Source of the DNA: a bacterium
GTDB taxonomy: Bacteria > Patescibacteriota > Microgenomatia > UBA1406 > GWC2-37-13
Length of the DNA: 64,000 nt
Assembly: GCA_021796235.1 (NCBI GenBank)
Contig: JAJYOJ010000002.1
Coordinates: forward strand, 34,660-98,659
Reading direction: 5' to 3'
Below, piece after piece: positions 470 through 64,000 of the stretch. The position numbers were made by a program, and so were the translations under genes. The number at the start of each line of letters is the position of its first letter. Within the stretch, counting starts at the first letter, position 1. The notes under the pieces were generated by a model. The model was not told where the DNA came from, made no database searches, and worked only from the letters and a program-made list of their open reading frames with translations.

Positions 470-486
470 TACTGTCCTGTCCAAAA

Positions 487-1515
487 CTACCAATCTTCTT
501 TGTAACGAGTATCCATGAAAGACATCGTATCGCGGACAACTATTTTCACTTCATTACTTTGTGCAGTACCAAAGACCTGTCCAGTTGAGATAACCGGCAA
601 ACTTCCGCGTCCCGAAGCATTATCTTTTTGGTACAAAGCCAAAAGATTCGGATCAACGCAGATATCTAAAAAATAAAAAAGATAACCGCCCAAAAGACTG
701 TCGCTATTGCTGTGAGTGAAAGTTATGTCGGTTGGTGTTGCATAAAGAACCATAAAGACGTGGCCGCCACCGATATCGCGTCCGGCTTTTAGACCTAAAA
801 GCTTTTGACCTGGACTAGCTGCAAGCCCTAACATATGTACAGGATAGTTCGGAGTTGCCACCTGAGGGGCTGCGCTTTTATTATTTTGGAAATCCCATTC
901 AAAAATTTGATAAGTTTTAATGATCTGAGGAAGCGGTCCACCGTAAAGGCTGCTGATCTGCGGTGGCATTTGATTATCAAGTCCATAGTTATTGCCGTTT
1001 CTACTGATAAGGCTTGTGCCCTGATTTACTGGAGTAAATCCGCGTAAGCGCAAATTTATCTCTGGATTGTTTTCGACAGGTCCATTGATTGGTATATCGG
1101 CCGAGGAGCGTTCTGCTCCCAGACTTGTATAATTTTGGCTCGATGTGGTTGGACAAACCGTAAAAGTTGGAGGCGTAGTCACAGTCGGGGTTGGGATGGT
1201 GGGTTGAGGAATAGTGCTTGGTTGCGGGACCGAAGTTGGATTTTGGCTGACAAATTCAGTTTGAGTTAGAGTCGGCGACGGTTCGGGAGTCAGGAAATTA
1301 AACGGCTGGACTGAATAGGTTGGTAGGGGAGTAACAGCTAAAGTTGGCGTAGGAGTCGCGGTTGGTTTTGCGGCAAAAAGTGAATCAAGATATTTTGTGT
1401 TTATTCGCGGCGAATTGGCCAGAAAGAAATTTTGGAGTATAAAAGACACTCCCAAAGCAGCAAGAATTGCGAAAACCAGCTTTAAATTTGCGATTTGCGA
1501 TTTGCGATTTGACAT
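487..1515 (-). CDS. Membrane-anchored Pro/Thr-rich secreted protein (hypothetical)
   Basis: ORF 487..1554. The likely start is MSNRKSQIANLK at 1515. It has an N-terminal TM helix, the motif FFLANSPRIN, a long P/T linker and a globular C-terminal domain of unknown family. Confidence 0.7.
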   Translation of the reverse strand: MSNRKSQIANLKLVFAILAALGVSFILQNFFLANSPRINTKYLDSLFAAKPTATPTPTLAVTPLPTYSVQPFNFLTPEPSPTLTQTEFVSQNPTSVPQPSTIPQPTIPTPTVTTPPTFTVCPTTSSQNYTSLGAERSSADIPINGPVENNPEINLRLRGFTPVNQGTSLISRNGNNYGLDNQMPPQISSLYGGPLPQIIKTYQIFEWDFQNNKSAAPQVATPNYPVHMLGLAASPGQKLLGLKAGRDIGGGHVFMVLYATPTDITFTHSNSDSLLGGYLFYFLDICVDPNLLALYQKDNASGRGSLPVISTGQVFGTAQSNEVKIVVRDTMSFMDTRYKEDW

Positions 1516-1560
1516 GATATTAATATATACATTATTATAGAGATAAATAAACATAACTTC

Positions 1561-3360
1561 ATGAAAAAAAGTCAGAGAGGAGAAATAATAACGCTTTTGA
1601 TGCTTGGTACATTAGTCGTGCTCGGAGTTTCTGCCTTTATTTCTACGGTTTTTTTAAAAAATAAGGCAACGACTTCTTCTAAAGCCGAAGTGGCGCCACC
1701 TGCGTGTACATCTTGCGTAGGCAACCAATGCGTATACCATCCGGAGTTAGATTGTAATACTATTCGCGGGGGGACAAATGTCAGCGGATCAAATTGCTGC
1801 GAAAACACGGGCTGTACCTTAAATAGTCAGTGCGGTGGAGTAAATCCGACTCCTTGTCCAGGTAAAGTCGACGCATCAGGCGCCTGTAATCCTGCCTGTT
1901 GCGATCCGAAACTTGATCCAAAAAATCCCGACGCCAACTGTCCATCAGGCCAAACCTGTACTCATGCCAATGGATACTGTCAGGGAGGATTTTCCTGTGA
2001 ACCTAAGGGGAGTTTAGGAAAAAGTATCTGTACACAAAACCAATGTGCTTGGATATTGTGTGACCCTAATGATTCATCCTGCTGTTCCAGCCAATCAGAC
2101 ACCCGTTGTCAGTATTGTAAAAGCAACAGTGAATGTGTGGGTGTTAATCCGACTCCTCCGACATCGACAGCGAGCAAATGTTTCAGTTTATCAGCCCAGG
2201 TAAGCCAAAAGCCTGTTCAGGGAGGAGTGCAGTTCTCAATCCAGCCAACAATCACGAACCTTGCCAAAATCGGGGCGCACATCCAGATGTGGGTTAACGG
2301 CAATCGGACATTGTTTAATAATTGGAATAAATATCCCGGAACAATAGACTTTGTACCCGGTCAGGAATATTCCGGATCTCCAGTAACCGTATTAAAGGGC
2401 AGATCGGCATCAATAACTTACACGGTTAAGGAAGATGAATGCAATACGCTTGGCAATCAAGATTCTCTTTCCTGCACTTTTCAGGTAGACAATGCAGGCA
2501 ATCCTTATTCAAGTTGTGGCCTGACGAATCCAGCCGCAGTAATTTCAGGGTCGGTTCCACAGGAATCGTCAACTCCAACTTCTGGAAAAACAGCCAATCA
2601 ACCGTGTGTTGCTCCCGCGACTCTTCAGTACCTAGGTTCAACTTTAGAGTGTGTTACGCCAATACCAGTTGCTGAAGGATTGCAATGCACACCACCGGCA
2701 GTACCCCAGTACACCGGTGCAGAAATGCAATGTGTAACTCCGATACCTGTTCCAACTGAAGGGACCAAATCGGTTAGTACCTGTATTAACTACGGAGTAA
2801 ATCCTCCCCAAAAGGATGTCGCTTGTCCTTTTACTCGTACAGAAATCTGCTCTCGTCTTATTAGTCGAAGATTGGCATCGGGCACTCGCTATGTTAAGAT
2901 TGATTGTGGAAATGATGCAAACAAAAATTCATGTTCATATAGTTGCAAAAAAGTCGACGATCTTGTAACAAATAATTATTCTGGTGCCTGTAATTCACCC
3001 GATACCTGTCTTGGATCTTTCGATGCCGCAGAATCAACTGTAAATGCAACTATCAATGCAACACTTATTAATTGCGCCGGTAAAAGAAATATTGCGTCGA
3101 TTTTTGTCCGTGACGCCGATAGCGGAAAAACTTATTCTTCAAAAACTTACAATCAATCGGTAAGTTATAACATCATAGACACATTAAGTTTTCAACTACC
3201 CAAATATCCTTTGTCTACTGTTAATCTACAATCTTTTGTCAACCTTCAAAATGTTAGCAATCCAAATGATAACGTTGGTTATTGGTCAGAAAACAAAGAA
3301 AGCATAAATTCAGTTCAGGGTGGGTCGGTAAGTTTACAAATTTCTTATACCTGTCAATAA
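1561..3360 (+). CDS. Cys-rich secreted/surface protein with N-terminal signal anchor (hypothetical)
   Basis: 599-aa ORF with an N-terminal TM helix. I count about 40 Cys, about 25 of them within residues ~48-207. Internal repeats are NSQCGGVNPTP/NSECVGVNPTP and LQYLGSTLECVTPIPV/PQYTGAEMQCVTPIPV. Confidence 0.75.
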   Translation: MKKSQRGEIITLLMLGTLVVLGVSAFISTVFLKNKATTSSKAEVAPPACTSCVGNQCVYHPELDCNTIRGGTNVSGSNCCENTGCTLNSQCGGVNPTPCPGKVDASGACNPACCDPKLDPKNPDANCPSGQTCTHANGYCQGGFSCEPKGSLGKSICTQNQCAWILCDPNDSSCCSSQSDTRCQYCKSNSECVGVNPTPPTSTASKCFSLSAQVSQKPVQGGVQFSIQPTITNLAKIGAHIQMWVNGNRTLFNNWNKYPGTIDFVPGQEYSGSPVTVLKGRSASITYTVKEDECNTLGNQDSLSCTFQVDNAGNPYSSCGLTNPAAVISGSVPQESSTPTSGKTANQPCVAPATLQYLGSTLECVTPIPVAEGLQCTPPAVPQYTGAEMQCVTPIPVPTEGTKSVSTCINYGVNPPQKDVACPFTRTEICSRLISRRLASGTRYVKIDCGNDANKNSCSYSCKKVDDLVTNNYSGACNSPDTCLGSFDAAESTVNATINATLINCAGKRNIASIFVRDADSGKTYSSKTYNQSVSYNIIDTLSFQLPKYPLSTVNLQSFVNLQNVSNPNDNVGYWSENKESINSVQGGSVSLQISYTCQ

Positions 3361-3749
3361 TGAAACAGAGGCCGTTTTATTTAAAAATACTGGTTGCTTT
3401 AGGAATTGGTTATTTTATTGCGAGTATACTTACAAAAAATGTTTTTATAGTTAATTCTCCCAGACTTAGACAGAATCTCGGTCAATATCTTTTAGCACAA
3501 TTAACCGGAGTAATTAACAATAGTGGCAGTTTTCTTGCCAATGTAGTCGGCGGTCGAAAAACTCCAGAGCAGGCGTTGGGGAACGTACCTTTGCAACAAG
3601 TTGCTAAAGGTGTCTATGCAAAAAACGGAAACGGTTATTCCTATACTATAATTAAAGAGAACGAAGTTGAGTGGGTAGTCTACAAGACCATCTTAAATGG
3701 TAAGCAAATAACCATTAAGATTCCTAAAGGCCAGATGCCGCCGCCATAA
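3360..3749 (+). CDS. Small membrane-anchored protein (hypothetical)
   Basis: In-frame ATG at 3360 overlaps the upstream stop (TAATG). Sequence MKQRPFYLKILVALGIGYFIASILTKNVFIVNSPRLRQNL: a TM helix followed by the same NSPR motif as ORFs 1..469 and 487..1515. Confidence 0.65.
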   Translation: MKQRPFYLKILVALGIGYFIASILTKNVFIVNSPRLRQNLGQYLLAQLTGVINNSGSFLANVVGGRKTPEQALGNVPLQQVAKGVYAKNGNGYSYTIIKENEVEWVVYKTILNGKQITIKIPKGQMPPP

Positions 3750-3915
3750 AAATGATGGATTTTATAACTGAAAAAGAATCACAAAAAGGCGAAATAATAT
3801 TGTTTATATAAAAGTTGATCCGGGTACACAATACGAGGAAAAAGTTAGCAATTATAATGGTCAACAAATAAAGGTGAGATTTCCCAAGAGAACTTTTAGC
3901 GGACAATAGTTAAAA

Positions 3916-3939
3916 CTCCAATGAATCGATTCATTGGAG
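3916..3939. repeat. Perfect 24-bp palindrome ctccaatgaatc|gattcattggag
   Basis: Read directly; the left half is the exact reverse complement of the right half. It lies in the intergenic region between ORFs 3360..3749 and 3989..4285. Confidence 0.9.
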
Positions 3940-3988
3940 CAAAATAACTTTAGTTGACTTTTAACTTTTAACATTTTATATTAATTTT

Positions 3989-4285
3989 ATGTACATCGGC
4001 CCATTTTACTTCGATACCAAAGAAATCTTCCTTATTTTAGCTGCGATTTTGGTAGGGCTTGCGCTTCAGTTTGGGTGGGGGATGTACTGGTTTGACAAAA
4101 GATCGCTTTTTACAATTATTATTTTAATGCTTGTCACAAAAGGTTTACTGCCCTCGATTCATAACGAAGCATTTTTTATCCTAGCGATAGTTACTATCTT
4201 TTTGACTCTTTACTTGCCGATTTTTCAGATAGTTCTTTTCTACTTCCTAAGTTTTGTTCTTTTCCGTCTTTTGAAAGTAATATAA
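3989..4285 (+). CDS. Small integral membrane protein (hypothetical)
   Basis: 98-aa ORF with three hydrophobic segments and no recognisable motif. Confidence 0.5.
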   Translation: MYIGPFYFDTKEIFLILAAILVGLALQFGWGMYWFDKRSLFTIIILMLVTKGLLPSIHNEAFFILAIVTIFLTLYLPIFQIVLFYFLSFVLFRLLKVI

Positions 4286-4322
4286 TTGACTTTTTCTGCC
4301 AACTTCTTTATTATTGAAATTA

Positions 4323-4973
4323 ATGAAAAAAGAGTTTTTGTCGTGGTTGATTTTATTTTTTTTGACAATTTTAGTTGCGCCTTTATTTGGGACTGTTAAA
4401 GCAGCCTCATTGACTTTTGATCCTCCGAGCGTTTCAACTCCTTCTGCCCAGACTTTTAATGTTAATGTCGATATAAACGCCGGCACGACAGAGGTTAACA
4501 GTGCCACAATCTATGTTTTATACGACCAAAATCTGCTTCAGGTCCAATCGGTGAGTGCCGGAACATATTTTCCTACCGTTACACCTGATTACACGACAAC
4601 TCCCGGCAAAGTTGTAATCATAGCCATGGAAAATGATCCGTCAGTTGTCGCATCCGGCTCGGGTACAATTGCTACGATTGCTTTTTCGGGACTAACCAAC
4701 GGAAGCGGAACCTTGAGTTTTGACTGCCAGCAAAGCAGCGGCAACACCTCGCTTATTACCGATATAAACAATAATAACGTCATTAACTGCGCTCAAAATG
4801 GCACCTCGGCAATTACCATAGGTACGGGTGTTTCAACTGCCAGTTTGTCTGGCACTCTTGCTCCCAGTCCCTCCGCCTTGCCACGAACCGGATTTTTTGA
4901 TAACGTTGTCAAGGCCGCAGTACCTGGCGCCATATTATTAATTGTTGGTGGGGTAGCAAGATTGTTGTTATGA
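4323..4973 (+). CDS. Cohesin-like domain surface protein with LPXTG-type (LPRTG) C-terminal sorting signal
   Basis: Signal peptide. A beta-rich domain (FNVNVDINAGTTEVNSATIYVLYDQNLLQVQSVSAGTYF) resembles cohesin-type modules. The C-terminus ALPRTG + hydrophobic stretch + R is the classic sortase tripartite signal. ATG at 4323; the track start 4314 is TTG. Confidence 0.6.
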   Translation: MKKEFLSWLILFFLTILVAPLFGTVKAASLTFDPPSVSTPSAQTFNVNVDINAGTTEVNSATIYVLYDQNLLQVQSVSAGTYFPTVTPDYTTTPGKVVIIAMENDPSVVASGSGTIATIAFSGLTNGSGTLSFDCQQSSGNTSLITDINNNNVINCAQNGTSAITIGTGVSTASLSGTLAPSPSALPRTGFFDNVVKAAVPGAILLIVGGVARLLL

Positions 4974-5554
4974 AAGATTCTAAAACCATCAGAATAGTTG
5001 CGACAGTAGTTGGTGTAATTCTTGCAATTGGTCTTATTTTCATCGGTTTCAAGGTTTTCTCGAGTGTTTTTACCCGCGCTTCCGACGTTGAACCGCGTGA
5101 CGTAATAATTGGTACAGTTACTCAAAACTCCGCTAACATTTCCTGGTCAACCGGTGTCGTTACCCAAGGCGTGGTTGAATACGGAACGTCGCCGACTGCT
5201 CTGAATTTTTTTGCGCCTGATCAAGCGGCCACCCAAAATCACTCGATCGATCTGACGCTTTTATCGCCGACTACGACGTATTATTTTCAGATTCGGGTGG
5301 GCCAAAATAAATTTGATAACGGAGGAGTGCCCTGGACTTTTACGACCAAAGGAAGTAGTCCAACTACTCAAGCTCCGACTCTGGCTCCGACGAGCCCGGC
5401 TTCCAGTACTTTACCTACTCCAGTCCAAACCCTGGAGATTCCGGCAACCTCCTGCACGTTCACGGACTGCACTCAGATCCGGTCTCACCTAGGCAAAGGC
5501 TGCAGCACACAAGATTATTTTAGATGTCTGAAAAAATTAACGCCAACTCCTTAA
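4970..5554 (+). CDS. Membrane-anchored fibronectin type III-like domain protein
   Basis: TM helix, then NISWSTGVVTQGVVEYGTSPTALN...TTYYFQIRV, an FN3/PAP-N-like pattern. P/T/S-rich tail with 4 Cys. ATGA overlap with the upstream gene. Confidence 0.6.
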   Translation: MKDSKTIRIVATVVGVILAIGLIFIGFKVFSSVFTRASDVEPRDVIIGTVTQNSANISWSTGVVTQGVVEYGTSPTALNFFAPDQAATQNHSIDLTLLSPTTTYYFQIRVGQNKFDNGGVPWTFTTKGSSPTTQAPTLAPTSPASSTLPTPVQTLEIPATSCTFTDCTQIRSHLGKGCSTQDYFRCLKKLTPTP

Positions 5555-6210
5555 ATAGTGCCTGAAGCTCCGAAACTTCCGGGCAAAAGCAGGTTGAGAA
5601 GAAAAGTAAAAGCCGGTCGGATCAAAATATCTAGCATTGAAGTGTTGCCAAAAGGAAAAATAAGCATAAGCAAAAAGATTATTCCGTAGCGTTCGAGTCC
5701 GTACCACTCCTTGGAACGTTTTTCAGAAAGCAGACCGCCAACGATTTTGAATCCATCCAGTGGGTTGATCGGCAAAAGGTTAAAGACTCCCAGAATAACA
5801 TTTAAAGTAATTAAAGGTACAAATAAAATCATTCCTATAGTTATTAAAACAGAAAGATGTAACAATATGAACGATCTTAGTAGTAGAGAAAGTATAAAAG
5901 CTAAAAGAAAGTTAGAAATTGGGCCGGCAATTGAGATTAATGCCGCTTCCTTGCGCGGGTCCTTTAAGTTATAAGGATCAAACTGGACAGGCTTGCCCCA
6001 GCCAAAGCCGACTAAAAGCAAAAAGGCGAGACCGAGTAGGTCAAGATGAACAAATGGATTTAAACTTAGCCTTCCTTGAAGCCTTGGAGTTGGGTCGCCC
6101 AGACGGTCGGCGACGAGCGCGTGGGAAAATTCGTGAATATCGATAGCCACGAGCAAAGCCACGATGTAGATAACGAAAAGAAGTGGATTGGTAAAAAGAT
6201 AATTTAACAT
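5551..6210 (-). CDS. Site-2 protease family zinc metalloprotease (peptidase M50)
   Basis: HEFSHALVADRLGD (HExxH) and NLLPINPLDG (NxxPxxxLDG) motifs in a multi-TM protein. Confidence 0.85.
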   Translation of the reverse strand: MLNYLFTNPLLFVIYIVALLVAIDIHEFSHALVADRLGDPTPRLQGRLSLNPFVHLDLLGLAFLLLVGFGWGKPVQFDPYNLKDPRKEAALISIAGPISNFLLAFILSLLLRSFILLHLSVLITIGMILFVPLITLNVILGVFNLLPINPLDGFKIVGGLLSEKRSKEWYGLERYGIIFLLMLIFPFGNTSMLDILIRPAFTFLLNLLLPGSFGASGTI

Positions 6211-6298
6211 TTAATTTAAATCGAAAAAAAATTCAATACCTTGCTTAGTTTAATTCAGAAATTGAAAATGCTGCTTTAATATGATATCATAAATCCTT

Positions 6299-6637
6299 AT
6301 GTTAGTTTGTTATCATTGTAGAAAAGGTCTTCTTTACGGCCGGAGTCACACTCACCACAGAGGTGTTGCGGGTGGACGCTGGAAGAAAAGAGCGCCCAAA
6401 ACCAGGCGCATCTTTGAATCTAATCTACAAAGAGTAGATATTTTAGTGGGTGGGCAAGTCAAGCGCGTGGTGCTCTGCACAAGGTGTTTAAAACGGGTTA
6501 AAAAGGACATTAAAGACGGCAAAAAACCGTTTGTTCAGCTAGCTCGTTTGAGGACCAAATCCGAAACTCGAAGCACGAAACTCGAAACAAATCCTAAGCT
6601 TAAAAAAAACAAAACAAAAACTGTTTCGAAAATTTGA
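6299..6637 (+). CDS. rpmB: 50S ribosomal protein L28 with basic C-terminal extension
   Basis: N-terminal CxxC...GxxxSH pattern and ...FESNLQRV...VCTRCLKR resemble L28. The tail contains a 14-bp x2 tandem repeat at 6562-6589. Confidence 0.65.
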   Translation: MLVCYHCRKGLLYGRSHTHHRGVAGGRWKKRAPKTRRIFESNLQRVDILVGGQVKRVVLCTRCLKRVKKDIKDGKKPFVQLARLRTKSETRSTKLETNPKLKKNKTKTVSKI

Positions 6638-6641
6638 ATTT

Positions 6642-7277
6642 TTAATACTTCAGCTTCTCTAATTCTCCATCTTTTTCCTCATAAAGAGGGATGTTCTGTT
6701 CAAGCGCCCGTTGGGTGAACATGATGCCCCGGAGATGGTCGACTTCATGCTGGATTATGATTGAGTCAAATCCGCCAAACCACTGTTTTTTTACTTCTCC
6801 GGCCAAATCCTGATATTCAAGAAGAATTCTTCCGCTTCGGGTTATCGGACTCCAGATCCGAGGGATGGAAAGGCAACCTTCAAGCTTCTGGGGAGGTTTT
6901 TTCTTTTGCGACAGTTTCTGTCGCTCGTGCTGCTTCTCTTCTGCGAGGCTCTCCGCCCGGCGGGCGGAATCCGCTTCTCGAAGAGTTTCCTCACTCGCGA
7001 CACCTATTGTATCTTTTACTTGGTTTGAATGTTTTATTATTTTCGGATTTATGAAGACCTGAAGTTTCGCTTTCTTATTTTTTTTAACGATAAAAAGCGC
7101 GAGATCTTCGCCGACCTGAGGAGCTGCCAACCCGACGCCTTGCGGATCAACCTGCGCATCCAGAGTTTTTGCCATCTGATTGACCAACTCGACAATTTTT
7201 TTGTCAATTTTTTTTACAGGTTTTACAGTCGAGGTTAAAATTTTATTTGGAACTACGACTATCTTGAGCATAGGCAA
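6642..7277 (-). CDS. def: Peptide deformylase carrying an extra segment of roughly 40 aa
   Basis: Motifs GVGLAAPQVG, EGCLSIP and QHEVDHLRG are present. Motifs 1 and 2 are about 86 aa apart, versus about 45 in E. coli Def. The extra segment coincides with repeat copy 6916-7008. Confidence 0.9.
   Translation of the reverse strand: MPMLKIVVVPNKILTSTVKPVKKIDKKIVELVNQMAKTLDAQVDPQGVGLAAPQVGEDLALFIVKKNKKAKLQVFINPKIIKHSNQVKDTIGVASEETLREADSARRAESLAEEKQHERQKLSQKKKPPQKLEGCLSIPRIWSPITRSGRILLEYQDLAGEVKKQWFGGFDSIIIQHEVDHLRGIMFTQRALEQNIPLYEEKDGELEKLKY
6916..7008. repeat. Family-1 GC-rich palindromic element, copy A (inside def)
   Basis: About 79% identical (73/92 by hand alignment) to 8148-8238. The 14-nt left end and 18-nt right end are identical. 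Termini form an imperfect inverted repeat, tgtcgctcgtg/cactcgcgaca. Confidence 0.85.
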
Positions 7278-7788
7278 GAAATATGATATTTAATACAAAA
7301 GCCGTAGCCGCCATAAGAGGTATCGAGATATACCCGAGATAAAATTGGTAACCTTTTACGCAGGAAACACCTGAGGCATCGCAGGGTGAAAGTAAAGAGG
7401 AGGGAAAACGTTGTAAAATATATTGATAGATGCCCAAAGCGGCGCCGAGCGTGTTCATTACCAGTAAACAGGGTTTTAAGACCTTTTTACTGCGCAGTAT
7501 TCCAATATATAAAAGAATCGGTTGGGGATACAGTAAAATTCTTTGATACCAACAAAGAGCGCAGGGTTTAAGTTTTACGATGTCAGAGAAAAAAAGACTG
7601 CCCAATATTCCAAATAACGAGATAAGAAATACAAAATAGTACGAATTTTTGCTAAGAATTTTTTTGACCATTTTATGAAGCTCCAAAAGCTTGAATTTTT
7701 CCAGCAAAAAGAGCGTACCTAATCCAGCTATAAAAAGCTCGCCAAGAACTGTCAGGCAGGCCAAAAGCTGCGGAATAAACTTTACCAT
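7243..7788 (-). CDS. DsbB/BdbC-family disulfide bond formation protein
   Basis: Multi-TM protein with CALCWYQRILLYP (CxxC + WYQR, BdbC-like) and a second Cys pair (CDASGVSC). The likely start is MVKFIPQLL at 7788. Confidence 0.75.
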   Translation of the reverse strand: MVKFIPQLLACLTVLGELFIAGLGTLFLLEKFKLLELHKMVKKILSKNSYYFVFLISLFGILGSLFFSDIVKLKPCALCWYQRILLYPQPILLYIGILRSKKVLKPCLLVMNTLGAALGIYQYILQRFPSSLLSPCDASGVSCVKGYQFYLGYISIPLMAATAFVLNIIFLAYAQDSRSSK

Positions 7789-7810
7789 GGAGATATTATA
7801 TAATAAAATG

Positions 7811-7838
7811 TCAAAGCTCAAATCTCAAAGCTCAAATC
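7811..7838. repeat. Perfect tandem duplication tcaaagctcaaatc x2, directly abutting the GT2 start codon
   Basis: Read directly: 7811-7824 = 7825-7838. The ATG of ORF 7840 follows 1 nt later. Confidence 0.9.
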
Positions 7839-7839
7839 T

Positions 7840-8709
7840 ATGAAACTGTCTTTATGCATAGCTACCTTTAATGAAGAAAAGAATATTCACTACCCATTAG
7901 ATTCAGCTTACGATTTAGCCGACGAAGTAATTATTGTGGATGGTGGATCAACCGACAAAACGGTTGAAGGTGCTAAAAAATATGGGAAAAAAATCAGCGT
8001 AATTATTGCCGACAACCCCGCCATGTTTCATAAGAATAAGGAGAAGGCGATTGAGGCGGCAAAAGGGGAGTGGATTTTACAGCTGGATGCAGATGAAGCT
8101 TTGTCAGAAGAGTTAAAAAAAGAAATCGAGCAAATTATTGCGATAGATTCTGTCGCTCGTGATGCTTCTCTCCTGCGAGCCTCTCCTATGAAAACCGGAA
8201 TCCGGTTCTCGGAGAGTCATCTCACTCGCGACACCTATCGCAACAATGTTGCTTACTGGGTTCCCCGCAAGAATTGGTTTTTAAGTCGATTCCTCACAAA
8301 AGGTGGTCAGTATCCCGACTACACGATAAGACTTTACAAAAACGGCGTTGCTCATTTTCCCTGTAAATCAGTCCATGAAAACGTTGATGTCACAGGTACG
8401 GTTGGTTATCTGAAAAATCCAATTCTCCATTATGCCGATCCGAATTTCTCCCGTTATTTGTTGCGTTGGGACCGTTATAACAATCTTGAGGCAGAAATAC
8501 TCAAAAAAAAGATCAAAGATCAAAAATCAAAGATCAAAAATTTGCAATATTTTTTTGATTATTTGCTGATCAGACCGCCGGTTACTTTTTTTTCTATGTA
8601 TTTCAGGCACCTAGGATTAGTTGATGGGTTGCCGGGTTTCATTTTTGCCTTATTTTCCTCAATTCGATTTTGGGCAATCTATGTTAAAACTATACAACAC
8701 ACTAACTAG
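7840..8709 (+). CDS. Family 2 glycosyltransferase carrying an in-frame repeat insertion
   Basis: LSLCIATFNEEKNI..., IIVDGGSTDKT and LQLDADE are GT2 signatures. The segment DSVARDASLLRASPMKTGIRFSESHLTRDTY is encoded by repeat copy 8148-8238. Confidence 0.85.
   Translation: MKLSLCIATFNEEKNIHYPLDSAYDLADEVIIVDGGSTDKTVEGAKKYGKKISVIIADNPAMFHKNKEKAIEAAKGEWILQLDADEALSEELKKEIEQIIAIDSVARDASLLRASPMKTGIRFSESHLTRDTYRNNVAYWVPRKNWFLSRFLTKGGQYPDYTIRLYKNGVAHFPCKSVHENVDVTGTVGYLKNPILHYADPNFSRYLLRWDRYNNLEAEILKKKIKDQKSKIKNLQYFFDYLLIRPPVTFFSMYFRHLGLVDGLPGFIFALFSSIRFWAIYVKTIQHTN
8148..8238. repeat. Family-1 GC-rich palindromic element, copy B (inside GT2 gene)
   Basis: See copy A. It has the same + strand orientation, but the host gene is on the opposite strand relative to def. 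Confidence 0.85.
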
Positions 8710-9820
8710 AAAAAAAGGAAAATTCGTTCCTCTTAAAGATAAAAAAGCAACCCTTTACGTTTGCGGGATAACTCCTTACGACACGACACATTTGGGCCAT
8801 GCCTTCACCTACATTTCTTTCGACGTTTTAGTCCGTTACCTTAAGTTTAAAGGTTATGAAGTTACATACACGCAAAACGTTACCGACATGAACGATCGGG
8901 ATAATGATATTTTAGCTCGGGCGAAAAAGTTAAATATTCCCTGGACAGAACTTGTAAACTACTGGACGAATCGGTTTTTAAACGATATGCAGGCCTTAAA
9001 CTGGATCAAGCCATCCAATTATTTATGGGCCTCAAAAAATATTCCCGAAATGATTATTTTAATTAAGAAACTTCTGAAAAACGGCTATGCTTATGAAGTT
9101 TCCGGCAGTGTTTATCTTGATGTAGCTAAGAAAAAAGACTTCGGCAAGCTTTCCCGCTACAGTGTGGCTGAAATGTTAAGGGTTGCCAAAGACTTTGAAG
9201 AGGACTTAACTAATTCTGACAAGAGACATCCTTTGGATATTACTCTCTGGCGGGCAACCGAAAAAAATCAGGAGCCGCATATTCCTTCATTTGAAAGTCC
9301 GTTTGGGAAGGGCAGACCGGGCTGGCATATTGAGTGCTCAGCCATGGTGATTAAAACCTTGGGCAGTCAGATCGATATCCACGGGGGCGGCCATGATCTC
9401 ATTTATCCCCACCATGAAAGTGAGATTGCTCAGTCGGAAGGGGCAACAGGCATAGTCCCGTTTGTGAGTTACTGGCTGCATACCGGTACAGTCCATTATC
9501 AGGTTAAAAAAATGTCAAAATCGTTAGGCAACCTTGTTTTAGTCTCCGATCTTTTGAAAAAATATTCCGCCAACGCCATTCGTTATTTACTTTTATCCCA
9601 TCACTATCGGGAGCCTTGGGAATTTTTTGAAAAAGATTTAATTGTAGCGGAGCAAAAGATTAAAGTTGTTGAAAAGAGATTGGTGGATAGTTCAGAAGGA
9701 AAAGAAGAGTTTGAACAAGCGATGAATAATGATCTAGATAGTCCTAGCGCCTTAAAGATCCTTGATAGAAAACCTTCATTGGAAATTTATAAAGCCCTTG
9801 GGTTCATCTCTAATTTTTGA
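8681..9820 (+). CDS. cysS: Cysteine--tRNA ligase, short form (379 aa)
   Basis: MLKLYNTLTRKK...CGITPYDTTHLGHA (HIGH-type), HIECSAM, HGGGHDLIYPHHESE and KMSKSLGN motifs. ATG at 8681; the track N-terminal extension overlaps the GT2 gene. Confidence 0.9.
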   Translation: MLKLYNTLTRKKGKFVPLKDKKATLYVCGITPYDTTHLGHAFTYISFDVLVRYLKFKGYEVTYTQNVTDMNDRDNDILARAKKLNIPWTELVNYWTNRFLNDMQALNWIKPSNYLWASKNIPEMIILIKKLLKNGYAYEVSGSVYLDVAKKKDFGKLSRYSVAEMLRVAKDFEEDLTNSDKRHPLDITLWRATEKNQEPHIPSFESPFGKGRPGWHIECSAMVIKTLGSQIDIHGGGHDLIYPHHESEIAQSEGATGIVPFVSYWLHTGTVHYQVKKMSKSLGNLVLVSDLLKKYSANAIRYLLLSHHYREPWEFFEKDLIVAEQKIKVVEKRLVDSSEGKEEFEQAMNNDLDSPSALKILDRKPSLEIYKALGFISNF

Positions 9821-10041
9821 AGTCTATTTTCGTGATCACCCAGAACAATTCGATTGCCGCGCACTTCTATTTTAGTTTTTTTAACCTCTACCATAACGTC
9901 TCCGATATCTTGAGCTAAAGTGATGAGGACATTATCTATTTTATTATTAATCCTAGCTTCGACTTTTTTAATATCTTCTTTCGTTACAAAAGTTTTTTTA
10001 AATTCAGCAACAAGATTTTTTATATCAATTTTCGTAAGCAT
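9787..10041 (-). CDS. Small coiled-coil protein (hypothetical)
   Basis: 84-aa charged, helical-looking ORF at the 3' end of the minus-strand operon. Confidence 0.4.
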   Translation of the reverse strand: MLTKIDIKNLVAEFKKTFVTKEDIKKVEARINNKIDNVLITLAQDIGDVMVEVKKTKIEVRGNRIVLGDHENRLQKLEMNPRAL

Positions 10042-17461: not shown

Positions 17462-17487
17462 TTTAGGCCTCCTTGAGAAAATAGTCG

Positions 17488-17565
17488 CTAAAAGCGACGG
17501 GTTTTTACGACACTAACTTTACTTACCTCTAAAAGAACGATTTCGGTACCGTCAGACCATTTCAT
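17488..17565 (-). CDS. Possible 25-aa leader/micro-ORF at the head of the island operon
   Basis: Own translation: MKWSDGTEIVLLEVSKVSVVKTRRF. It is preceded by AAAGGAGGTGATAA. Too short to judge coding potential. Confidence 0.25.
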   Translation of the reverse strand: MKWSDGTEIVLLEVSKVSVVKTRRF

Positions 17566-17587
17566 TTATCACCTCCTTTCAAATAGA

Positions 17588-17634
17588 ATACGTGCGCTCT
17601 AAGGACAAAAAATTTATCCTCATAGTGCACGTAT
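17588..17634. promoter_or_regulatory. 18-bp-arm inverted repeat (operator-like) upstream of the island operon
   Basis: atacgtgcgctctaagga (17588-17605) versus the rc of tcctcatagtgcacgtat (17617-17634): 15/18 match, 11-bp A/T spacer. Confidence 0.5.
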
Positions 17635-17744
17635 CCTAGAGCTTAATCAAAATAACCGTTTTGCAACAATTATTTCTTTCAGCATAAAGGATGTGATTGC
17701 TTCAAGGAGTACCATGTGGTCTATCTTTCCCACATAAAATAAAA

Positions 17745-18055
17745 TATTCCCTGTCAGCTTTTTTGAAAAGCTGATAGGCATCAATTTCTCATTTCCGCAA
17801 ACTCAAGCAAATTGAGTTTTGGATCTTCGAACGATGCCTAAACTCATTTGTAAAAGTGCGACAAGATTTGCTGCTTACGCTTGCTTGTTTTACGCAAGCC
17901 TCCTCTTGTCACCGATATCCCTCTTTTCATCGAGGGTTGGCAAAAGCTATCTTTGCCCCCTCGATGGGGGATTTCCTCGGGTTTTTAAGCCCAAGAAGTG
18001 AAGGGCAGCCCTTCTGCTGATTTAAGAGCACCCTCCACTTCCTAGACTTAAAGCC
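17745..18055. ncRNA. Candidate structured non-coding RNA (family and strand unresolved)
   Basis: About 300 nt with no ORF and many nested complementary segments: catcgaggg...ccctcgatg enclosing ggcaaa..tttgcc; gaagtg...cacttc; aggcatc...gatgcct enclosing aaactcaa..ttgagttt; tcagctttt-ttg-aaaagctga. Confidence 0.3.
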
Positions 18056-18084
18056 AAAAAAAACCCAAGAGGTTGTTTCTTGGG
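18056..18084 (-). terminator. Intrinsic terminator of the DUF11 gene
   Basis: Stem cccaaga/tcttggg with a 7-nt loop. An A8 run on the + strand gives a U-tract on the - strand. Confidence 0.7.
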
Positions 18085-18278
18085 TTCAATGACAACAATC
18101 TCAGCAGCGATTGTACTACCTATAGTAAACATATCAGCAGTTATATTTTTGCTATAGTTAAGTTTGCAAAAGTCCATATTATTTTATCCACAGACACAGC
18201 ACAATATCCTAATTAAAATTACTATATCCAATCAGCACGGATAATGATGGACTTTATGCCTAATTGTCAAAGCTGCGA

Positions 18279-52670: not shown

Positions 52671-53417
52671 ATGTCAGGTCATTCTAAGTGGTCACAGATT
52701 AAGAGAAAAAAAGGGATAGCGGACCAGGCGCGCGGTAACCTTTTCTCCAAACTTTCTCGCATTATTACGCTTGCAGTTTTGGAAGGCGGAGGCATTACCG
52801 ATCCAGATAATAACGTGAAGCTTCGTTTGGCTGTAGAAAAAGCCAAACAATCCAATATGCCAAAGGAGAATGTTTTACGCGCGATAGAGCGGGGAGTCGG
52901 TCCAAATAAAGCCATGATCAAAGAAGTCGTGTATGAAGTTTTTGCTCAGGAAGGTGTGTCCCTTATAATTTTAGCTACATCTGACAATGTTAATAGAACT
53001 TTAAGCGATATAAAAAATATCTTGGAGCGAAACGGCGCGAAACTCGCCGGTCAAGGTTCTGTGGATTATCTTTTTCAAAAATGCGGTTTGGTTACATTTC
53101 ATAAATCAAATACTTCGGAAGAGAAGGTTCTAAATTTTGCCGAGAGATTAATGGCGCAAGACATTGATCAAGATAACGAACTTTATTACGTTTATATACC
53201 TTTCGAGGCTCTAGGACACGTCAAAGATAATTTGAATGGATTGGTTCCAGACGTTGTAGAACTTGATTACAGGCCAAAAGCTAAGATTGAGGTGAAAACT
53301 TCGAGCGATGCCAAAAAAATTCTTAATCTTGTAGATTCGTTAGAAGAACTAGACGATGTCCACAAAGTTTTTGGAAATTTTGATATTCCCGATGAAACAA
53401 TTCAATCACTTGCTTAA
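52671..53417 (+). CDS. yebC: YebC/PmpR-family DNA-binding regulator
   Basis: MSGHSKWSQIKRKKG N-terminus and family-typical length. Confidence 0.9.
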   Translation: MSGHSKWSQIKRKKGIADQARGNLFSKLSRIITLAVLEGGGITDPDNNVKLRLAVEKAKQSNMPKENVLRAIERGVGPNKAMIKEVVYEVFAQEGVSLIILATSDNVNRTLSDIKNILERNGAKLAGQGSVDYLFQKCGLVTFHKSNTSEEKVLNFAERLMAQDIDQDNELYYVYIPFEALGHVKDNLNGLVPDVVELDYRPKAKIEVKTSSDAKKILNLVDSLEELDDVHKVFGNFDIPDETIQSLA

Positions 53418-54207
53418 ATTCATAGAAAAAAAAGCTGTAAAGATTGAGAAGCGGCTGCGTTTCGCTTTATCCTCTTTGTGTTTGGCGCTCCTACTGCTTT
53501 TTTCAACTTTCTTCTATTTTGATAAGGCTTTTATTTTTATTCCATTATTGGTGGTAACGACATATGTACTAACGTATTTTTCGGTTTTGGAAGGGATTCA
53601 TGACATTGAATGGTTTACCTTATTTTTTATGCCGATCGTTGTCTCTGTCTCATTTTATCTTTTCTACTTTCTTTTTCCGGTAAGGTGGTTGACGAGATTA
53701 CCATTTATCGTGATTTATGGAATTTCGACATACGCAATTCTTTTAACGGCAAATATTTTTAACATCGGGGTAGAGAAGAGCCTTCAACTTTATCGAGCTG
53801 CCTTTTCCGTTAATTTTTTTTATCAAACGGTGTGCAGTTTTTTACTTTTTAATATTATTTTATTTTTTCGTCTAAATTTCTTATACAACGCAATTTTGGC
53901 GGGGGGAATAGGGTTTTTGTTGGATATTCATCTGTTTTGGACATTAAAGCTCGATAAAACAATTGAGAAGCGACTTTTACTTTTTGCTTTCCTTATCGGT
54001 AGCGTAATTTTTGAAGCAGCATCTCTAATGTCGTTTGTGCCCATTAACTCCACAATATTTTCTCTTTTTTTGACCGGGATCTTATATTCCCTAAGCGGGC
54101 TAAGTTACAGCTACCTTGACCAACGGTTATTTAAAGAAACGATTCGTGAATATTTAATTGTGCTCGGATTTATTTTTGTAATCACATTATTATCTATAAG
54201 TTGGTAA
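53392..54207 (+). CDS. Polytopic membrane protein (hypothetical)
   Basis: About 8 hydrophobic helices. No motif recognised. Confidence 0.55.
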   Translation: MKQFNHLLKFIEKKAVKIEKRLRFALSSLCLALLLLFSTFFYFDKAFIFIPLLVVTTYVLTYFSVLEGIHDIEWFTLFFMPIVVSVSFYLFYFLFPVRWLTRLPFIVIYGISTYAILLTANIFNIGVEKSLQLYRAAFSVNFFYQTVCSFLLFNIILFFRLNFLYNAILAGGIGFLLDIHLFWTLKLDKTIEKRLLLFAFLIGSVIFEAASLMSFVPINSTIFSLFLTGILYSLSGLSYSYLDQRLFKETIREYLIVLGFIFVITLLSISW

Positions 54208-54381
54208 GTTCTTTATGTAAATCTGCCCGGCGGCGAGTAGAGAACAGGGTAGAGGCCCAGACTAGATGGGTAAGGGAAGTGTACGGACGTGAAGTATTTA
54301 TCCTATAGTATATTAAATACTATAGGGTATTAAATAAATGTAAGAATCCGGCTCCAAACTTAATATTATTAGTTTTAAATC

Positions 54382-54682
54382 GAGGCTAATTTAATAAGTT
54401 TAGTAAGCTACTACGCTCCAAAGTTGAGTATCACTCTATGTGGATAACTGCCAGGATTTGAGGCTAAAAATTAGAATTTAGATCTGTATGACGCTCTAAA
54501 TTACATTCATTCTTACATTGTTTAGCGTTCTAATTTATTAAAATTTAGCCTCAAAAATTATATTTTAGACCAATATTATCTTCTAAACTTAATAGGGTTC
54601 TATTTCTCGTGCGTTCCTTATGTGCTATTTCTTAATAATTTAGCCTCGAAATCGATAGTTTAGAGCAATTATATGTTCTAAA
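54382..54682. repeat. Degenerate array of four 41-42-bp units, each ending in a 24-bp TTTAGN-N12-NCYAAA palindrome
   Basis: The units are 54382-54422, 54460-54500, 54546-54587 and 54641-54682. Each has a core gaggcta (units 1-2) or its complement tagcctc (units 3-4) plus an A/T tract, followed by tttag(a/t)-N12-tc(t/c)aaa. Confidence 0.7.
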
Positions 54683-55259
54683 TATAACGACGTTTCTAGC
54701 CTCAATTTAGCCTCAAAAAAAGAGTGCGAGAGAGGTTAAAAAAAGGTTGAAATAACTGAGTTATAACCGGAGAAAATAAAGTTTATTCACGTCATGTTAA
54801 GAGAAGAGAAAGATTCTGTTCTCTCCTAAAATGTAGTAATAAAAAATAAAAATACCCCAATCGGCAGCCGGCTAAAAAATGAAATACAACTCCGGGAGCA
54901 GAAGCATGTATAACGTCGTAAATTGTATCTTTTACGACGTCAACCGTGGCTAGTTCCAGGCGAGTGGTTTAAAATTAGAAATTAATAATTTTAAATTTAT
55001 TTAAAAATAATTCATTTCTTTCTTTTCTCCCCTAATTTATCTCTCTGTTATCTTCAGAGATCCGGGGTCCTTTTTAGCCCTTTAAAACCTGCTAACTCTC
55101 CCCCGGATTCCGCCTTTTTTAGCCTTATAACAATCTAATTCTTCCCTATCCCCTAAAGAATTGCTAGATTGGGGAGTGCTTAAAAATAAGCCAACATAAT
55201 TATTGGAATGATAATCAGGCACTTGATACGGGCTAACTTTAATATATAATCTATCTATC

Positions 55260-56189
55260 GTGCAGGAAGGATACAGTCCAGTAAAACAGGCTAATTTGAA
55301 ACAAGGTTTAATCGACAGAGCATTAAATATTATTGCCAATTCAGTTGAGATGGATTTCCCTCAGGATACATTACGTCAGACCGCTCTTCAAATAGCCTCC
55401 GGTATTCCGGTCATACTTGTTTCCAATCATCAAAGTCATGTTGACGTAATGCCTTTAGCGGTTATTGCTAATCAGGTCAGAAGAGCCGCCAATGATTATA
55501 TCTCTACCGGTAAATACCCTCGTAAAAAGGCATTTTCTCATTTCTTATGTCCGATGGCCTCTTCGGTAGTGACTGGTGGACAGACGCAGGACATCACAGC
55601 CGGATACATCAATACCAGAGATTGGTTATTAAAAAACGGAATCGTGACAGTGCCGGTCACTCGTGACAGAGACATAAAATATTATGGAGGTCAAGGACTT
55701 CCGCCAACAATCGATTCTATGAGAGCTCTTTTAACCGCTTTTAAAGATGGTCACGGATTAGCTATAACTATTGCCGGTACCGTCGAGGAAGGCAGGCGGA
55801 AAAAAGGTGGTCGCTCGGGAAAAAGAATCGGACTGAAGAAGCTCTCTAGCAAAAATTTGCTGACTGAAACTGTCGTGAGACAACATGCGGCCGGTATTAA
55901 TACGTTGATTGTCCCAATTGCCATTTCGGGCACATACCTCTTATTTGATCCCGATGAAAGAAAAGTTACTTTATCTTCGGTTAGAACTTTAGTTAGAAAT
56001 TTAGTCCCTTTCTCTTTAACCAAAGCTACGACTGTTAAAGTAGCACAACCGATAATGACCGAAGAACTATGGGCAGATGCACCGGAAGATGAGGCAGATC
56101 TTCATACTTTTTTGAATAACCGTTTATTGGTAATTATTGCTAGCAAATTACCTCCTGAAGCACGGGGTGAATTCGCCAACATGGTTTGA
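55260..56189 (+). CDS. PlsC/LPLAT-family acyltransferase
   Basis: The NHQSHVD (HX4D) motif and a later AGTVEEG block. GTG start; an alternative ATG is at 55350. Confidence 0.65.
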   Translation: MQEGYSPVKQANLKQGLIDRALNIIANSVEMDFPQDTLRQTALQIASGIPVILVSNHQSHVDVMPLAVIANQVRRAANDYISTGKYPRKKAFSHFLCPMASSVVTGGQTQDITAGYINTRDWLLKNGIVTVPVTRDRDIKYYGGQGLPPTIDSMRALLTAFKDGHGLAITIAGTVEEGRRKKGGRSGKRIGLKKLSSKNLLTETVVRQHAAGINTLIVPIAISGTYLLFDPDERKVTLSSVRTLVRNLVPFSLTKATTVKVAQPIMTEELWADAPEDEADLHTFLNNRLLVIIASKLPPEARGEFANMV

Positions 56190-62699: not shown

Positions 62700-62786
62700 G
62701 GAGAAGTCGCATAGTGGACGAGTGCGTACGCCTGGAAAGCGTATAAGACCGCAAGGTCTTCGCGGGTTCGAATCCCGCCTTCTCCG
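62700..62786 (+). tRNA. tRNA-Ser (anticodon GGA)
   Basis: Acceptor GGAGAAG/CTTCTCC, anticodon stem TACGC/GCGTA with loop CTGGAAA, long variable arm AGACC-GCA-GGTCT, T arm GCGGG-TTCGAAT-CCCGC. Confidence 0.85.
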
Positions 62787-62887
62787 CCCTGATTTGGAGC
62801 GTCTCAGCGACCTGAATACTACCATTAAACAGCTCGCTGGGGCTTGCTCAAAATCTTGGGATTCAAGACTTTTCGGTTTTACATCCT

Positions 62888-63194: not shown

Positions 63195-64000
63195 CTAAAT
63201 TATTCGCAGTTCCCGGTTATGAAGAATGAATTTGGTTCTGATAACAACCATGATTTGCTGTCGCTCCTCCGGAGTTCCGGCTTTGAGAATATGGAGAAGG
63301 TATGATTTTGCCATTTCTGGCGATAAGGTACCAGAAGCTACTGATACCTCCGCCTCTTCTTGCAGATTGCCGGTTATATATTCCTGATGAAGCACTTGCG
63401 TTCTTAATGTATGGAACCGCTCAATCTCTGATTTGATGGATTTAGATAGCAATCGTTCGTCGATTTTAATCTGGTCAATATGGGAAATCAACTGTTTAAT
63501 CAAGTCTGCTTCGGTGATGTACGGTTCTTCACAATCATAATCAATGGCTCGGGCACAGTGGTAATAGATATGTTTTGAGTACCCGTTATATTTAAGTTTC
63601 TTAAACTTTTCCTCAGCGGTTACACTTCCTCCGCATGATCCACATTTGCAGACGGATTTAAAAGGAAAGATGTTTTTGTGCCATTCCCTGGGAGGAACTA
63701 TTAGTTGATTTTGAACTTTATTAAATATTTCTTTTGTTGTTAATGGTTGATGTTTGCCGGTATATTTCATTCCATTAAAGGTAAAGACACCGTAGTAAAA
63801 AGGGTTCTTAAGGGTAGCATAAATACGACTTAATGATAGTTTCTTTCCATTTTTAGTAGTAAAGCCTATGGTATCAAGCCATTTCTTGATGGTTCTTCCC
63901 GAATGACCACGGTTAGCTACCCTGTGAAACATTTGGGTTACAACTGGTCCTCTCTCTTTATCTATGTCAATCCATTCAATACGATTATTCTCCATAATGT
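63195..64000 (-). CDS. Large serine recombinase; recombinase and zinc-ribbon domains only, with the catalytic N-terminal domain beyond the window edge
   Basis: ...SLSRIYATLKNPFYYGVF...GKHQPL... is the recombinase domain. CKCGSCGG...YYHCARA is the zinc ribbon, followed by a coiled-coil tail. The frame stays open to position 64000. Confidence 0.75.
   Translation of the reverse strand, partial: IMENNRIEWIDIDKERGPVVTQMFHRVANRGHSGRTIKKWLDTIGFTTKNGKKLSLSRIYATLKNPFYYGVFTFNGMKYTGKHQPLTTKEIFNKVQNQLIVPPREWHKNIFPFKSVCKCGSCGGSVTAEEKFKKLKYNGYSKHIYYHCARAIDYDCEEPYITEADLIKQLISHIDQIKIDERLLSKSIKSEIERFHTLRTQVLHQEYITGNLQEEAEVSVASGTLSPEMAKSYLLHILKAGTPEERQQIMVVIRTKFILHNRELRII

Follow-up and report, generated by a model that had tools for sequence, protein, structure and literature searches.

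In a 64-kb stretch of the Patescibacteriota contig JAJYOJ010000002.1 (64,000 nucleotides, hereafter the window), the gap that follows a gene for a DUF5656 membrane protein (54208–55259) contains a perfect 10-bp inverted repeat around a short center, ACGTCGTAAA-TTGTATCT-TTTACGACGT (54913–54940; hereafter the core). On balance, the comparisons of related sequences described below lead us to read this core as a dif-like chromosome-dimer-resolution site, undescribed before, of a single-recombinase Xer system, and we consider it likely that the region as a whole acts as DNA rather than as RNA. What we observe is the anatomy of the region, its single-copy status, its extreme conservation, its linkage to xer and ruvC in divergent lineages, its position relative to the replication terminus and the absence of RNA-type covariation.

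The core has the layout by which single-recombinase dif sites are recognized, with two inverted arms of ~10–11 bp around a central region of 6–11 bp: its arms are 10–11 bp long (11 bp when the flanking A/T is counted) and lie on either side of an asymmetric center of 6–8 bp. To follow it in other genomes, relatives were traced via the left-hand DUF5656 gene, because the right-hand gene is an orphan. A scan for the palindrome in one genome per GTDB species matched at least 119 stretches; among the matches listed, nearly all belong to Microgenomates, Roizmanbacteria, Woesebacteria and WWE3, with essentially one contig per assembly. The core is accompanied by a series of motifs (the module) that is found downstream of DUF5656 in more than 170 Microgenomates/Roizmanbacteria loci, and the DUF5656 gene lies directly upstream and co-directional in 97 of the 111 oriented loci, the others being truncated or from distant lineages. 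We also picked 80 further metagenome loci by DUF5656 alone, that is, independently of the palindrome: it was present in all 66 loci (66/66) that reached far enough downstream. In 136 non-redundant sequences, 9 of the 10 arm pairs are invariant, and the asymmetric center is partly conserved ([AT]T[GA]NA[TG]CT); beyond the core, pairing falls to chance within 2 bp. The flanking DUF5656 proteins are 53–64% identical between relatives.

The core is single-copy in the window and its 7.8-kb extension, and there is one per locus, even when up to 5 arm mismatches are allowed. In complete Roizmanbacteria chromosomes it maps to 904,135 of 1,103,789 (CP066689.1), 677,727 of 1,216,931 (MGBH01000001.1) and about 778,006 of 938,475 (OZ246401.1). 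Likewise, no second copy of the core, full or partial, flanks the variable genes in the loci examined, and a self-similarity search found no further copy of any part of the gap in the 64 kb. A CGTCGTTTAAT word elsewhere in the window was considered as a second core copy and rejected, as it codes for the peptide LNDV.

The synteny of the region is shared upstream (a DksA-type zinc-finger gene, a Na/H exchanger gene, a hypothetical gene, a gene for a tetratricopeptide-repeat (TPR) protein, yebC and DUF5656), and in relatives with an approximately 60% identical DUF5656 the gap is 850–970 bp long, with recognizable sequence blocks. To the right, one end of the next gene is usually found about 250 nt past the core, and the slot beyond is occupied by varying genes over 0 to ~6 kb before FemAB/DegT. 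The original prediction, which was made from the window sequence alone, had called for a synteny check and had named two outcomes that would speak against a functional locus: a protein-coding gene in the relatives, of which the gap would be a degraded copy, and a lack of conservation together with a lack of any transcription or binding signal. The segment is retained after the DUF5656 gene in relatives, these relatives have no gene in the gap, so that it is not a pseudogene, and its conservation is extreme. In L065, a 598-aa gene on the − strand (about −2667 to −871 from the core) has come to lie between DUF5656 and the module, and in L115 an ORF (open reading frame) similar to IS200/RAYT occupies about −1400 to −700; the module is unchanged in both cases. 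Note that in L065 the purine block GAGGAGAGGGGAG, which marks the start of the module, travels with the module and not with DUF5656.

In some lineages the core is directly linked to a recombinase gene. In L081, from a distant Microgenomates lineage whose DUF5656 has no more than 29% identity, yebC is followed by a hypothetical gene, ruvC, DUF5656 and the module, in which the 28-mer is identical; 278 nt further along there is a tyrosine recombinase gene. The WWE3 loci L076 and L124 show yebC, ruvC, a DUF5656-like gene, a DnaA box and the palindrome, followed by the recombinase, so that xer adjoins the site there as well. The Pfam matches bear out the assignments as RuvC and DUF5656 and the Xer architecture, in which a SAM-like N domain is joined to Phage_integrase. 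In Roizmanbacteria, the orthologous xer is co-directional and lies downstream of the site at a greater distance, 3.6–4.6 kb in L042 and L079 and 13–14 kb in L005, L006 and L212; as judged from the gene order, a variable block of − strand genes is inserted between the site and xer. The Xer protein is 74–86% identical across Roizmanbacteria, far above DUF5656, a degree of conservation that fits an enzyme locked to an invariant site. Its closest solved structure is XerD and its nearest relatives are XerD, XerC and XerA, yet it scores equally for the XerC and XerD NCBIfam equivalogs (236 bits, below the cut-offs of 330 and 335). A 'Cand' subgroup of Xer-like proteins has been described only from candidate phyla (10.1101/542381), and the linked Xer, with these scores, fits this subgroup. 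Five Roizmanbacteria loci (L207–L211) also carry the conserved word (A/C)(T/C)GTCGTTTAATAT about 10–25 nt ahead of the xer start (locus positions ~9975–9995); with its CGTCGT, which resembles a half-site of the palindrome, it may be an autoregulatory site.

The site is at or near the replication terminus. In the window genome, followed to the end of the contig, the GC skew is +0.081 between 19 and 54 kb, −0.046 between 55 and 72 kb and −0.082 past 64 kb, and the cumulative G−C curve has its maximum at 56,627, that is, 1.7 kb from the core. The genes shift in the same place from mostly + to all −: every gene from FemAB to Nramp (~15 kb) is on the − strand. In four other contexts of 21–36 kb, the cumulative curve peaks in the interior, 3.8–17 kb rightward of the core. 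For known dif sites the reported distance from the skew shift point is 0–1.4% of the genome length, and outliers stay under 3% (PMC3025954). The distances seen here come close to this: in genomes of ~1 Mb, 1.4% corresponds to ~14 kb and the 17-kb case to ~1.7%. An inflection of the skew had been suggested as something to look for; the inflection is present, but not in the sense of an origin, as the cumulative curve passes through a maximum (terminus) and not a minimum. Further to the right, the window contains a tRNA-Ser(GGA) gene (62700–62788) and then, on the − strand, a gene for a large serine recombinase (Resolvase/Recombinase/Zn_ribbon; 63195–64000, continuing to 64508 on the contig); this pair may be the edge of an element integrated near the terminus.

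Like the canonical XerCD/dif sites of Escherichia coli and Bacillus subtilis, the core is a 28-bp site with 11-bp arms and a short center, and its central TGTATC resembles the TGTATA of the E. coli site. The position at the skew shift point is also shared (PMC3025954). By contrast, the perfect dyad symmetry observed here implies one recombinase and not two. The canonical dif consensus consists of an ATAA-N6-TTATG core between dissimilar XerC and XerD arms. The site described here has identical arms and no ATAA/TTATG core, and the linked Xer falls below both NCBIfam cut-offs, so that by these criteria it does not qualify as a canonical XerCD dif.

The closest parallels are the single-recombinase systems XerS/difSL and XerH/difH, in which the site lies beside the gene and has near-symmetric arms ending in A-runs towards the center (PMC5357621). 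Here as there, a single recombinase would face a nearly symmetric site with inverted arms of ~10–11 bp and A/T-run inner ends, and the site is single-copy, near the terminus and linked to xer (in L081, L076 and L124). The differences are that the arms are unrelated (ACGTCGTAAA here, TTTCCGAAAA / AGTTATGAAAA in difSL/difH), that the center is 8 bp long instead of the 11 bp of difSL, that the recombinase resembles XerC/D and XerA more than it does XerS and XerH, that in most Roizmanbacteria, including the window genome, xer has moved off by 4 to more than 17 kb, and that the known difSL and difH sites have no large conserved flanking array. Plasmid sites offer another comparison: cer consists of a 30-bp core with an 8-bp center beside sequences bound by ArgR/PepA (PMC5357621). 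The likeness to cer and psi lies in the combination of a core Xer site with a polar block of sequences on one side, here putative accessory protein-binding sites, and the functional analogy is speculative; the present locus is chromosomal and terminus-located, its array is 3–4 times longer and its motifs are unrelated. Two further comparisons concern the region around the core. The datA, DARS and DnaA-box clusters of E. coli and B. subtilis are non-coding DnaA-binding loci away from oriC, with 3–5 or more boxes. They share with the module the status of a conserved intergenic locus with a consensus DnaA box in fixed orientation, but here there is exactly one box. OLE RNA with OapA offers the parallel of a large conserved non-coding stretch that is always beside the gene of a polytopic membrane protein of unknown function; OLE, however, shows abundant covariation and is in Rfam, whereas the present region has no covariation, flipped motifs and no Rfam match.

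If the core is indeed a dif-like site, two monomers of one Xer protein would bind the identical ACGTCGTAAA arms, cleavage and strand exchange would take place across the asymmetric 6–8-bp center, and recombination between the two site copies of dimerised sister chromosomes would convert them into monomers before division. The ordered array, which lies in a polar manner on one side of the core, could provide binding sites for other proteins with an accessory or regulatory role, in the way in which the accessory sequences of plasmid cer and psi impose resolution selectivity. Alternatively, it might be the ancestral xer promoter/operator and might couple the system to the replication cycle via DnaA. 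We attach only a small chance to the bolder idea that a symmetric single-Xer core governed by a polar accessory nucleoprotein array of ~0.65 kb, including the DnaA box, constitutes a new kind of dif. In such a case dimer resolution might be controlled, instead of or besides by FtsK, by a plasmid-style topological filter or a DnaA-coupled checkpoint, a suggestion that we make just as tentatively.

Several observations weigh against the core being a dif-like site. It is unlike the canonical XerCD dif consensus, and known chromosomal dif sites lack an accessory array such as the 0.65-kb one seen here. The xer gene was not found in the window nor in the remaining 17 kb of its contig, and in the Roizmanbacteria loci L210 and L211 the palindrome is absent within 10 kb of xer, which does not coincide with a skew maximum either. 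In L211 (Roizmanbacteria GW2011_GWC2_37_13, 1–10000) xer even sits at a sharp V-shaped GC-skew minimum beside a − strand ribosomal-protein operon, an origin-like or inversion-breakpoint signature unlike that of the other genomes. Outside the window genome, the four long contexts show only a weak change of sign past the site (skew −0.014 to −0.022 on its right), and the ±4-kb flanks of ~90 loci show positive skew on both sides, with no average reversal; the latter test is misleading, because the switch lies 2–17 kb rightward and every locus contributes the same syntenic genes to the flanks. Three features would be in keeping with a transcript from the + strand: at the variable arm pair, G-T occurs in 14 cases and A-C in 3, several motifs are strictly strand-specific, and in many loci a T-run follows the purine motif past the core. 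The purine motifs, considered as candidates for FtsK-orienting polar sequences (KOPS) converging on the core, were discarded in that role, as + copies occur on both sides, together with paired +/− copies, and there is no clean flip. Finally, two GC-rich contigs of 'Candidatus Dormibacteria' have an identical 34-nt sequence in another context, and the variable genes are not flanked by second core copies in the loci examined.

Of all stretches of the 64-kb window that lack ORFs of 100 aa or more, the gap is the longest. The original prediction that it is non-coding is upheld, since its lone ORF (55082–55339, − strand, 85 aa) has no Pfam match, and all the sequence features that had been listed were found where they had been placed. 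These features exceed chance: the 1-kb gap has three different perfect hairpins whose stems reach 9 bp or more (for all 64 kb the expectation is ~5 hairpin counts), and TTAGCCTC occurs in 5 copies inside 330 bp, the expectation for the whole window being 1.6. As to the 'degenerate repeat array' reported by the original prediction, the short motifs are there, dispersed and in both orientations, but they do not form a tandem array (Tandem Repeats Finder reported none). Three further features had gone unlisted, namely a perfect AT-only hairpin (54968–54995), a perfect DnaA box and a strong promoter-like sequence ahead of the downstream gene. The features of the region are as follows.

53356–54207, + strand: gene for the DUF5656 membrane protein (Pfam PF18900), the constant upstream neighbor of the module.
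54221–54290: GC-richer patch (GC 0.586, against 0.39 for the window).
54235–54255, + strand: purine-rich block GAGTAGAGAACAGGGTAGAGG, a weak window copy of the conserved GAGGAGAGGGGAG block at the module start.
54283–54291, + strand: ACGGACGTG box (family consensus CACGRACGTG), ~10 nt ahead of the CCTATAGTA motif.
54302–54326: inverted pair CCTATAGTA / TACTATAGG, a perfect 9-bp stem (the first hairpin of the original prediction).
54351–54720, both strands: short-motif array, with dispersed copies.
54351, 54415 and 54493, + strand: GCTCYAAA.
54382–54389 (−), 54460–54467 (−), 54545–54552 (+), 54640–54647 (+) and 54707–54714 (+): TTAGCCTC.
54439–54447, − strand: DnaA box TTATCCACA (TGTGGATAA on the + strand).
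54659–54666: TTTAGAGC.
54698–54704, + strand: TAGCCTC.
54894–54904, + strand: purine motif GGGAGCAGAAG, directly ahead of the core.
54913–54940: core palindrome ACGTCGTAAA-TTGTATCT-TTTACGACGT, a perfect 10-bp inverted repeat (the second hairpin of the original prediction), the proposed dif-like Xer site.
54959–54967, + strand: purine motif GGCGAGTGG (family consensus GGAGGAGTGG), ~20 nt past the core.
54965–55020: AT stretch (GC 0.089, against 0.39 for the window).
54968–55020: AT-rich stretch including the AT-only hairpin (GC 9%), AT-rich in all relatives.
55017–55056, − strand: pyrimidine-rich block TCTTTCTTTTCTCCCC..., a purine motif on the − strand and the right end of the conserved module.
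55060–55108: 8-nt inverted repeat ATCCGGGG...CCCCGGAT, whose counterpart is absent in the aligned relatives L005 and L006; probably outside the conserved module.
55223–55250, + strand: promoter-like TTGATA-16-TATAAT (11/12 consensus matches), at the start of the variable slot and outside the module.

Across the family, the module reads in a constant order: the purine block GAGGAGAGGGGAG, the CACGRACGTG box, ~10 nt, CCTATAGTA, one DnaA box, 1–5 units (TTTAGCCTCAAAA plus TTTAGAnn-N8-nnTCTAAA), purine motifs, the core, GGAGGAGTGG, the AT-rich stretch and purines on the − strand. The 1–5 TTAGCCTC/GCTCTAAA units sit in the upstream array (~0.65 kb), which has a fixed order and polarity. We regard TTTAGCCTCAAA, ACGCTCTAAA, CCTATAGTA and CACGRACGTG as candidate protein sites of this array. 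The 162 elements compared differ in detail. The purine motif GGAGAG[GA]GGA occurs 56 times on the + strand and never on the − strand, and the CACGRACGTG box, present in 117/162 elements, has 129 copies on the + strand and 23 on the − strand. The copy number of TTAGCCTC varies from 1 to 5 and its orientation varies between genomes (154 copies on the + strand and 68 on the − strand, that is, 31% flipped); in the window, the spacing of the array motifs, which are 8–12 nt long, is irregular (67–95 bp). The CCTATAGTA 9-mer forms an inverted pair in some relatives and 2–4 direct copies in others, and is therefore a sequence motif and not an obligatory stem. A perfect DnaA box is found as one copy in 124/162 elements, in the opposite orientation in only 1 element and never clustered; in the WWE3 locus L076, it likewise lies between the DUF5656-like gene and the palindrome. 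A + strand purine motif is present within 30 nt upstream of the core in 65/136 loci and the GGAGGAGTGG motif within 30 nt past it, also on the + strand, in 122/136. In relatives, the purine motifs of the − strand are concentrated between +90 and +240, counted from the core.

Some of the strand preferences just described would suit a transcript, and the region could be a gene for a large non-coding RNA on the + strand or a long structured 3′ untranslated region (UTR), partnering the adjacent membrane protein as OLE RNA does OapA, with the motifs as protein-binding RNA elements and the 28-mer as a conserved stem-loop. The fixed place after a co-directional membrane-protein gene, the strict + strand occurrence of the purine and ACGCTCYAAA motifs, a fold that is 16 kcal/mol better on the + than on the − strand, the variable core arm pair (G-T 14, A-C 3) and, in some lineages, a post-core purine motif that forms a stem followed by a T-run are all in keeping with this explanation. 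However, both strands share a z-score of −4.74, and Rfam, which the original prediction had suggested searching, gave no match in the region, even at E≤1; scans of the full window and of 18 relatives at the gathering score yielded tRNAs only. RNAalifold, run on the 136 sequences, returned only the invariant core hairpin, with a covariation term of −0.07. Among 164 'hairpins' of the units, the observed pairs (AT 113, GT 33, AC 14, GC 4) equal the expected ones (113, 33, 14 and 4); the unit stems are therefore without pairing constraint, since the pair frequencies are the product of the marginals. In addition, TTAGCCTC is flipped in 31% of its copies and CCTATAGTA is either direct or inverted: a flipped RNA copy is a different sequence, whereas flipping is harmless for protein sites on duplex DNA, which favors DNA over RNA. 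The closest relative, L004, has non-compensatory changes in the would-be long-range helices. That the module stays intact when a − strand gene parts it from DUF5656 implies that it is not simply a 3′ UTR, and an RNA would leave unexplained both the linkage to xer and ruvC and the perfect DnaA box, a known double-stranded-DNA signal. With Rfam, covariation and motif flipping all unsupportive, the non-coding RNA option of the original prediction appears distinctly unlikely. The individual RNA structures that were considered were rejected one after the other: the nested long-range helices 54380–98/54631–49 and 54457–73/54539–55 (non-compensatory changes, and in some genomes copies all in one orientation), the unit hairpins TTTAGAnn-N8-nnTCTAAA (bases that pair no more often than their marginal frequencies predict), a helix enclosing the core that is visible in one subfamily (no family-wide support in an unbiased scan or by RNAalifold) and a pseudoknot between the loop and the 5′ flank (ruled out by geometry and the absence of covariation).

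Among explanations at the DNA level, the one that we rate as unlikely, but slightly less so than an RNA, is transcriptional control alone: the module would be the ancestral promoter/operator of xer (perhaps of yebC-ruvC-DUF5656), with the palindrome as operator, the DnaA box as cell-cycle input and no recombination. Indeed, in L081 and WWE3 the module fills the DUF5656–xer intergenic space directly upstream of xer, a half-site-like CGTCGT precedes the xer start by ~10 nt also in genomes in which xer is now distant from the module, DnaA is known to act as a transcription factor, and the ACGRACGTG-N10-CCTATAGTA geometry is roughly promoter-like. Yet an operator without its gene should decay, and the Roizmanbacteria module has long been kept intact 3.6–14 kb from xer; there is no constant downstream gene, and the one present is often convergent; and neither the terminus position nor a 28-bp site stricter than any promoter element is predicted by such a role. 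The original prediction had envisaged the remains of a mobile element, to which a Xer-exploiting integrative element, a miniature inverted-repeat transposable element (MITE), an insertion sequence (IS) end or an attachment site can be added. The slot to the right of the module is indeed variable (0 to ~6 kb, including the orphan gene of the window), an IS200/RAYT-like ORF is inserted nearby in L115 and the same 34 nt occur in the two GC-rich Dormibacteria contigs; but the region is single-copy and vertically conserved, with the same synteny and order across a phylum-level lineage, no second core, full or partial, surrounds the variable genes and the window holds no further copy of the region or of a part of it, which makes this origin very improbable. 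A replication origin or a partition (centromere/iteron) locus, the other DNA-level possibility put forward in the original prediction, has hardly any probability left in our view. With a perfect DnaA box, short motifs in repeated copies and a stretch of 9% GC, the locus superficially resembles iteron origins in composition, but the DnaA box is alone in 124/162 elements and never in a cluster, no dnaA gene is present in ~200 loci, no rep or par gene is adjacent, genes converge on the site instead of diverging from it, in 5/5 long contexts the cumulative skew peaks at or near the site instead of reaching a minimum there, and the irregular spacing of the motifs (67–95 bp) is not that of a tandem array. 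The locus thus fails as an origin or as an iteron- or centromere-like site in any tested sense; what stands of the original prediction is a functional non-coding locus, and its idea of chromosome maintenance at the DNA level comes close to the dif-like Xer site that is best supported. A CRISPR (clustered regularly interspaced short palindromic repeats) array, for which a search had also been advised, was not found: there is no tandem or periodic structure, the 8–12-nt motifs are in both orientations and 67–95 bp apart, and there are no cas genes nearby. A TIGR-Tas array was likewise discarded, as the units are too long and a Tas gene is absent.

Some additional observations concern the core sequence and the loci in which it was found. 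Logan contigs begin or stop exactly at the 30-mer formed by TA and the core (L002:1–30, L003:1–30, L007:7474–7503); de Bruijn assemblies with k=31 break at the core because this 30-mer is identical in co-occurring species. Dozens of GTDB records (L008–L126) titled 'uncultured Gammaproteobacteria' (TPA_asm) show the Microgenomates yebC-DUF5656-module synteny and are evidently mislabelled. The two Dormibacteria copies (L021:1596–1623 and L039:7913–7940) consist of an identical 34-nt TATA-core-TAT, including the TTGTATCT center, in unrelated contexts on GC-rich contigs; the copy in L021 is flanked by a toxin-antitoxin pair and a GGDEF/EAL gene. In the Prevotellaceae metagenome-assembled genome CAMZAE01 (L019, L032, L088, L098, L125), ACGTCGTAAA / TTTACGACGT words make up ~21-bp tandem arrays on several contigs, an unrelated, iteron-like repeat family.

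Within the window, the second-largest ORF-free gap (17462–18278) contains CCTATAGTA (18119), TGCTATAGT (~18150) and a DnaA box TTATCCACA on the + strand (18184–18192); it thus shares CCTATAGTA and DnaA-box words with the module, but without the module's other motifs. The ORF to the right of the gap (55260–56189), which the original prediction took for an acyltransferase, has only a sub-threshold Pfam match (22.2 bits, for a cut-off of 23) and no homologue but itself among 5.8 billion proteins; it occupies the slot that holds differing genes in relatives and has its own strong promoter-like site.

In the literature searched, no dif site has been described for Patescibacteria, also known as the candidate phyla radiation (CPR), and neither has DUF5656 or the core sequence. 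While the Xer/dif principle is known, the features that are new here are the core sequence, the perfect symmetry of the core and an extensive conserved module, proposed to be accessory, of a kind absent from known chromosomal dif sites. If the core is a dif-like site, the invariant 28-mer would be a marker of the terminus and would provide a one-line test of the orientation and completeness of metagenome-assembled CPR genomes; it would also serve as a terminus anchor for coverage-based estimates of growth rate, and the site would be a predicted hotspot for Xer-exploiting mobile elements. Moreover, an array with a single DnaA box beside a recombination core would then offer an entry point to cell-cycle control in organisms that are not culturable alone.

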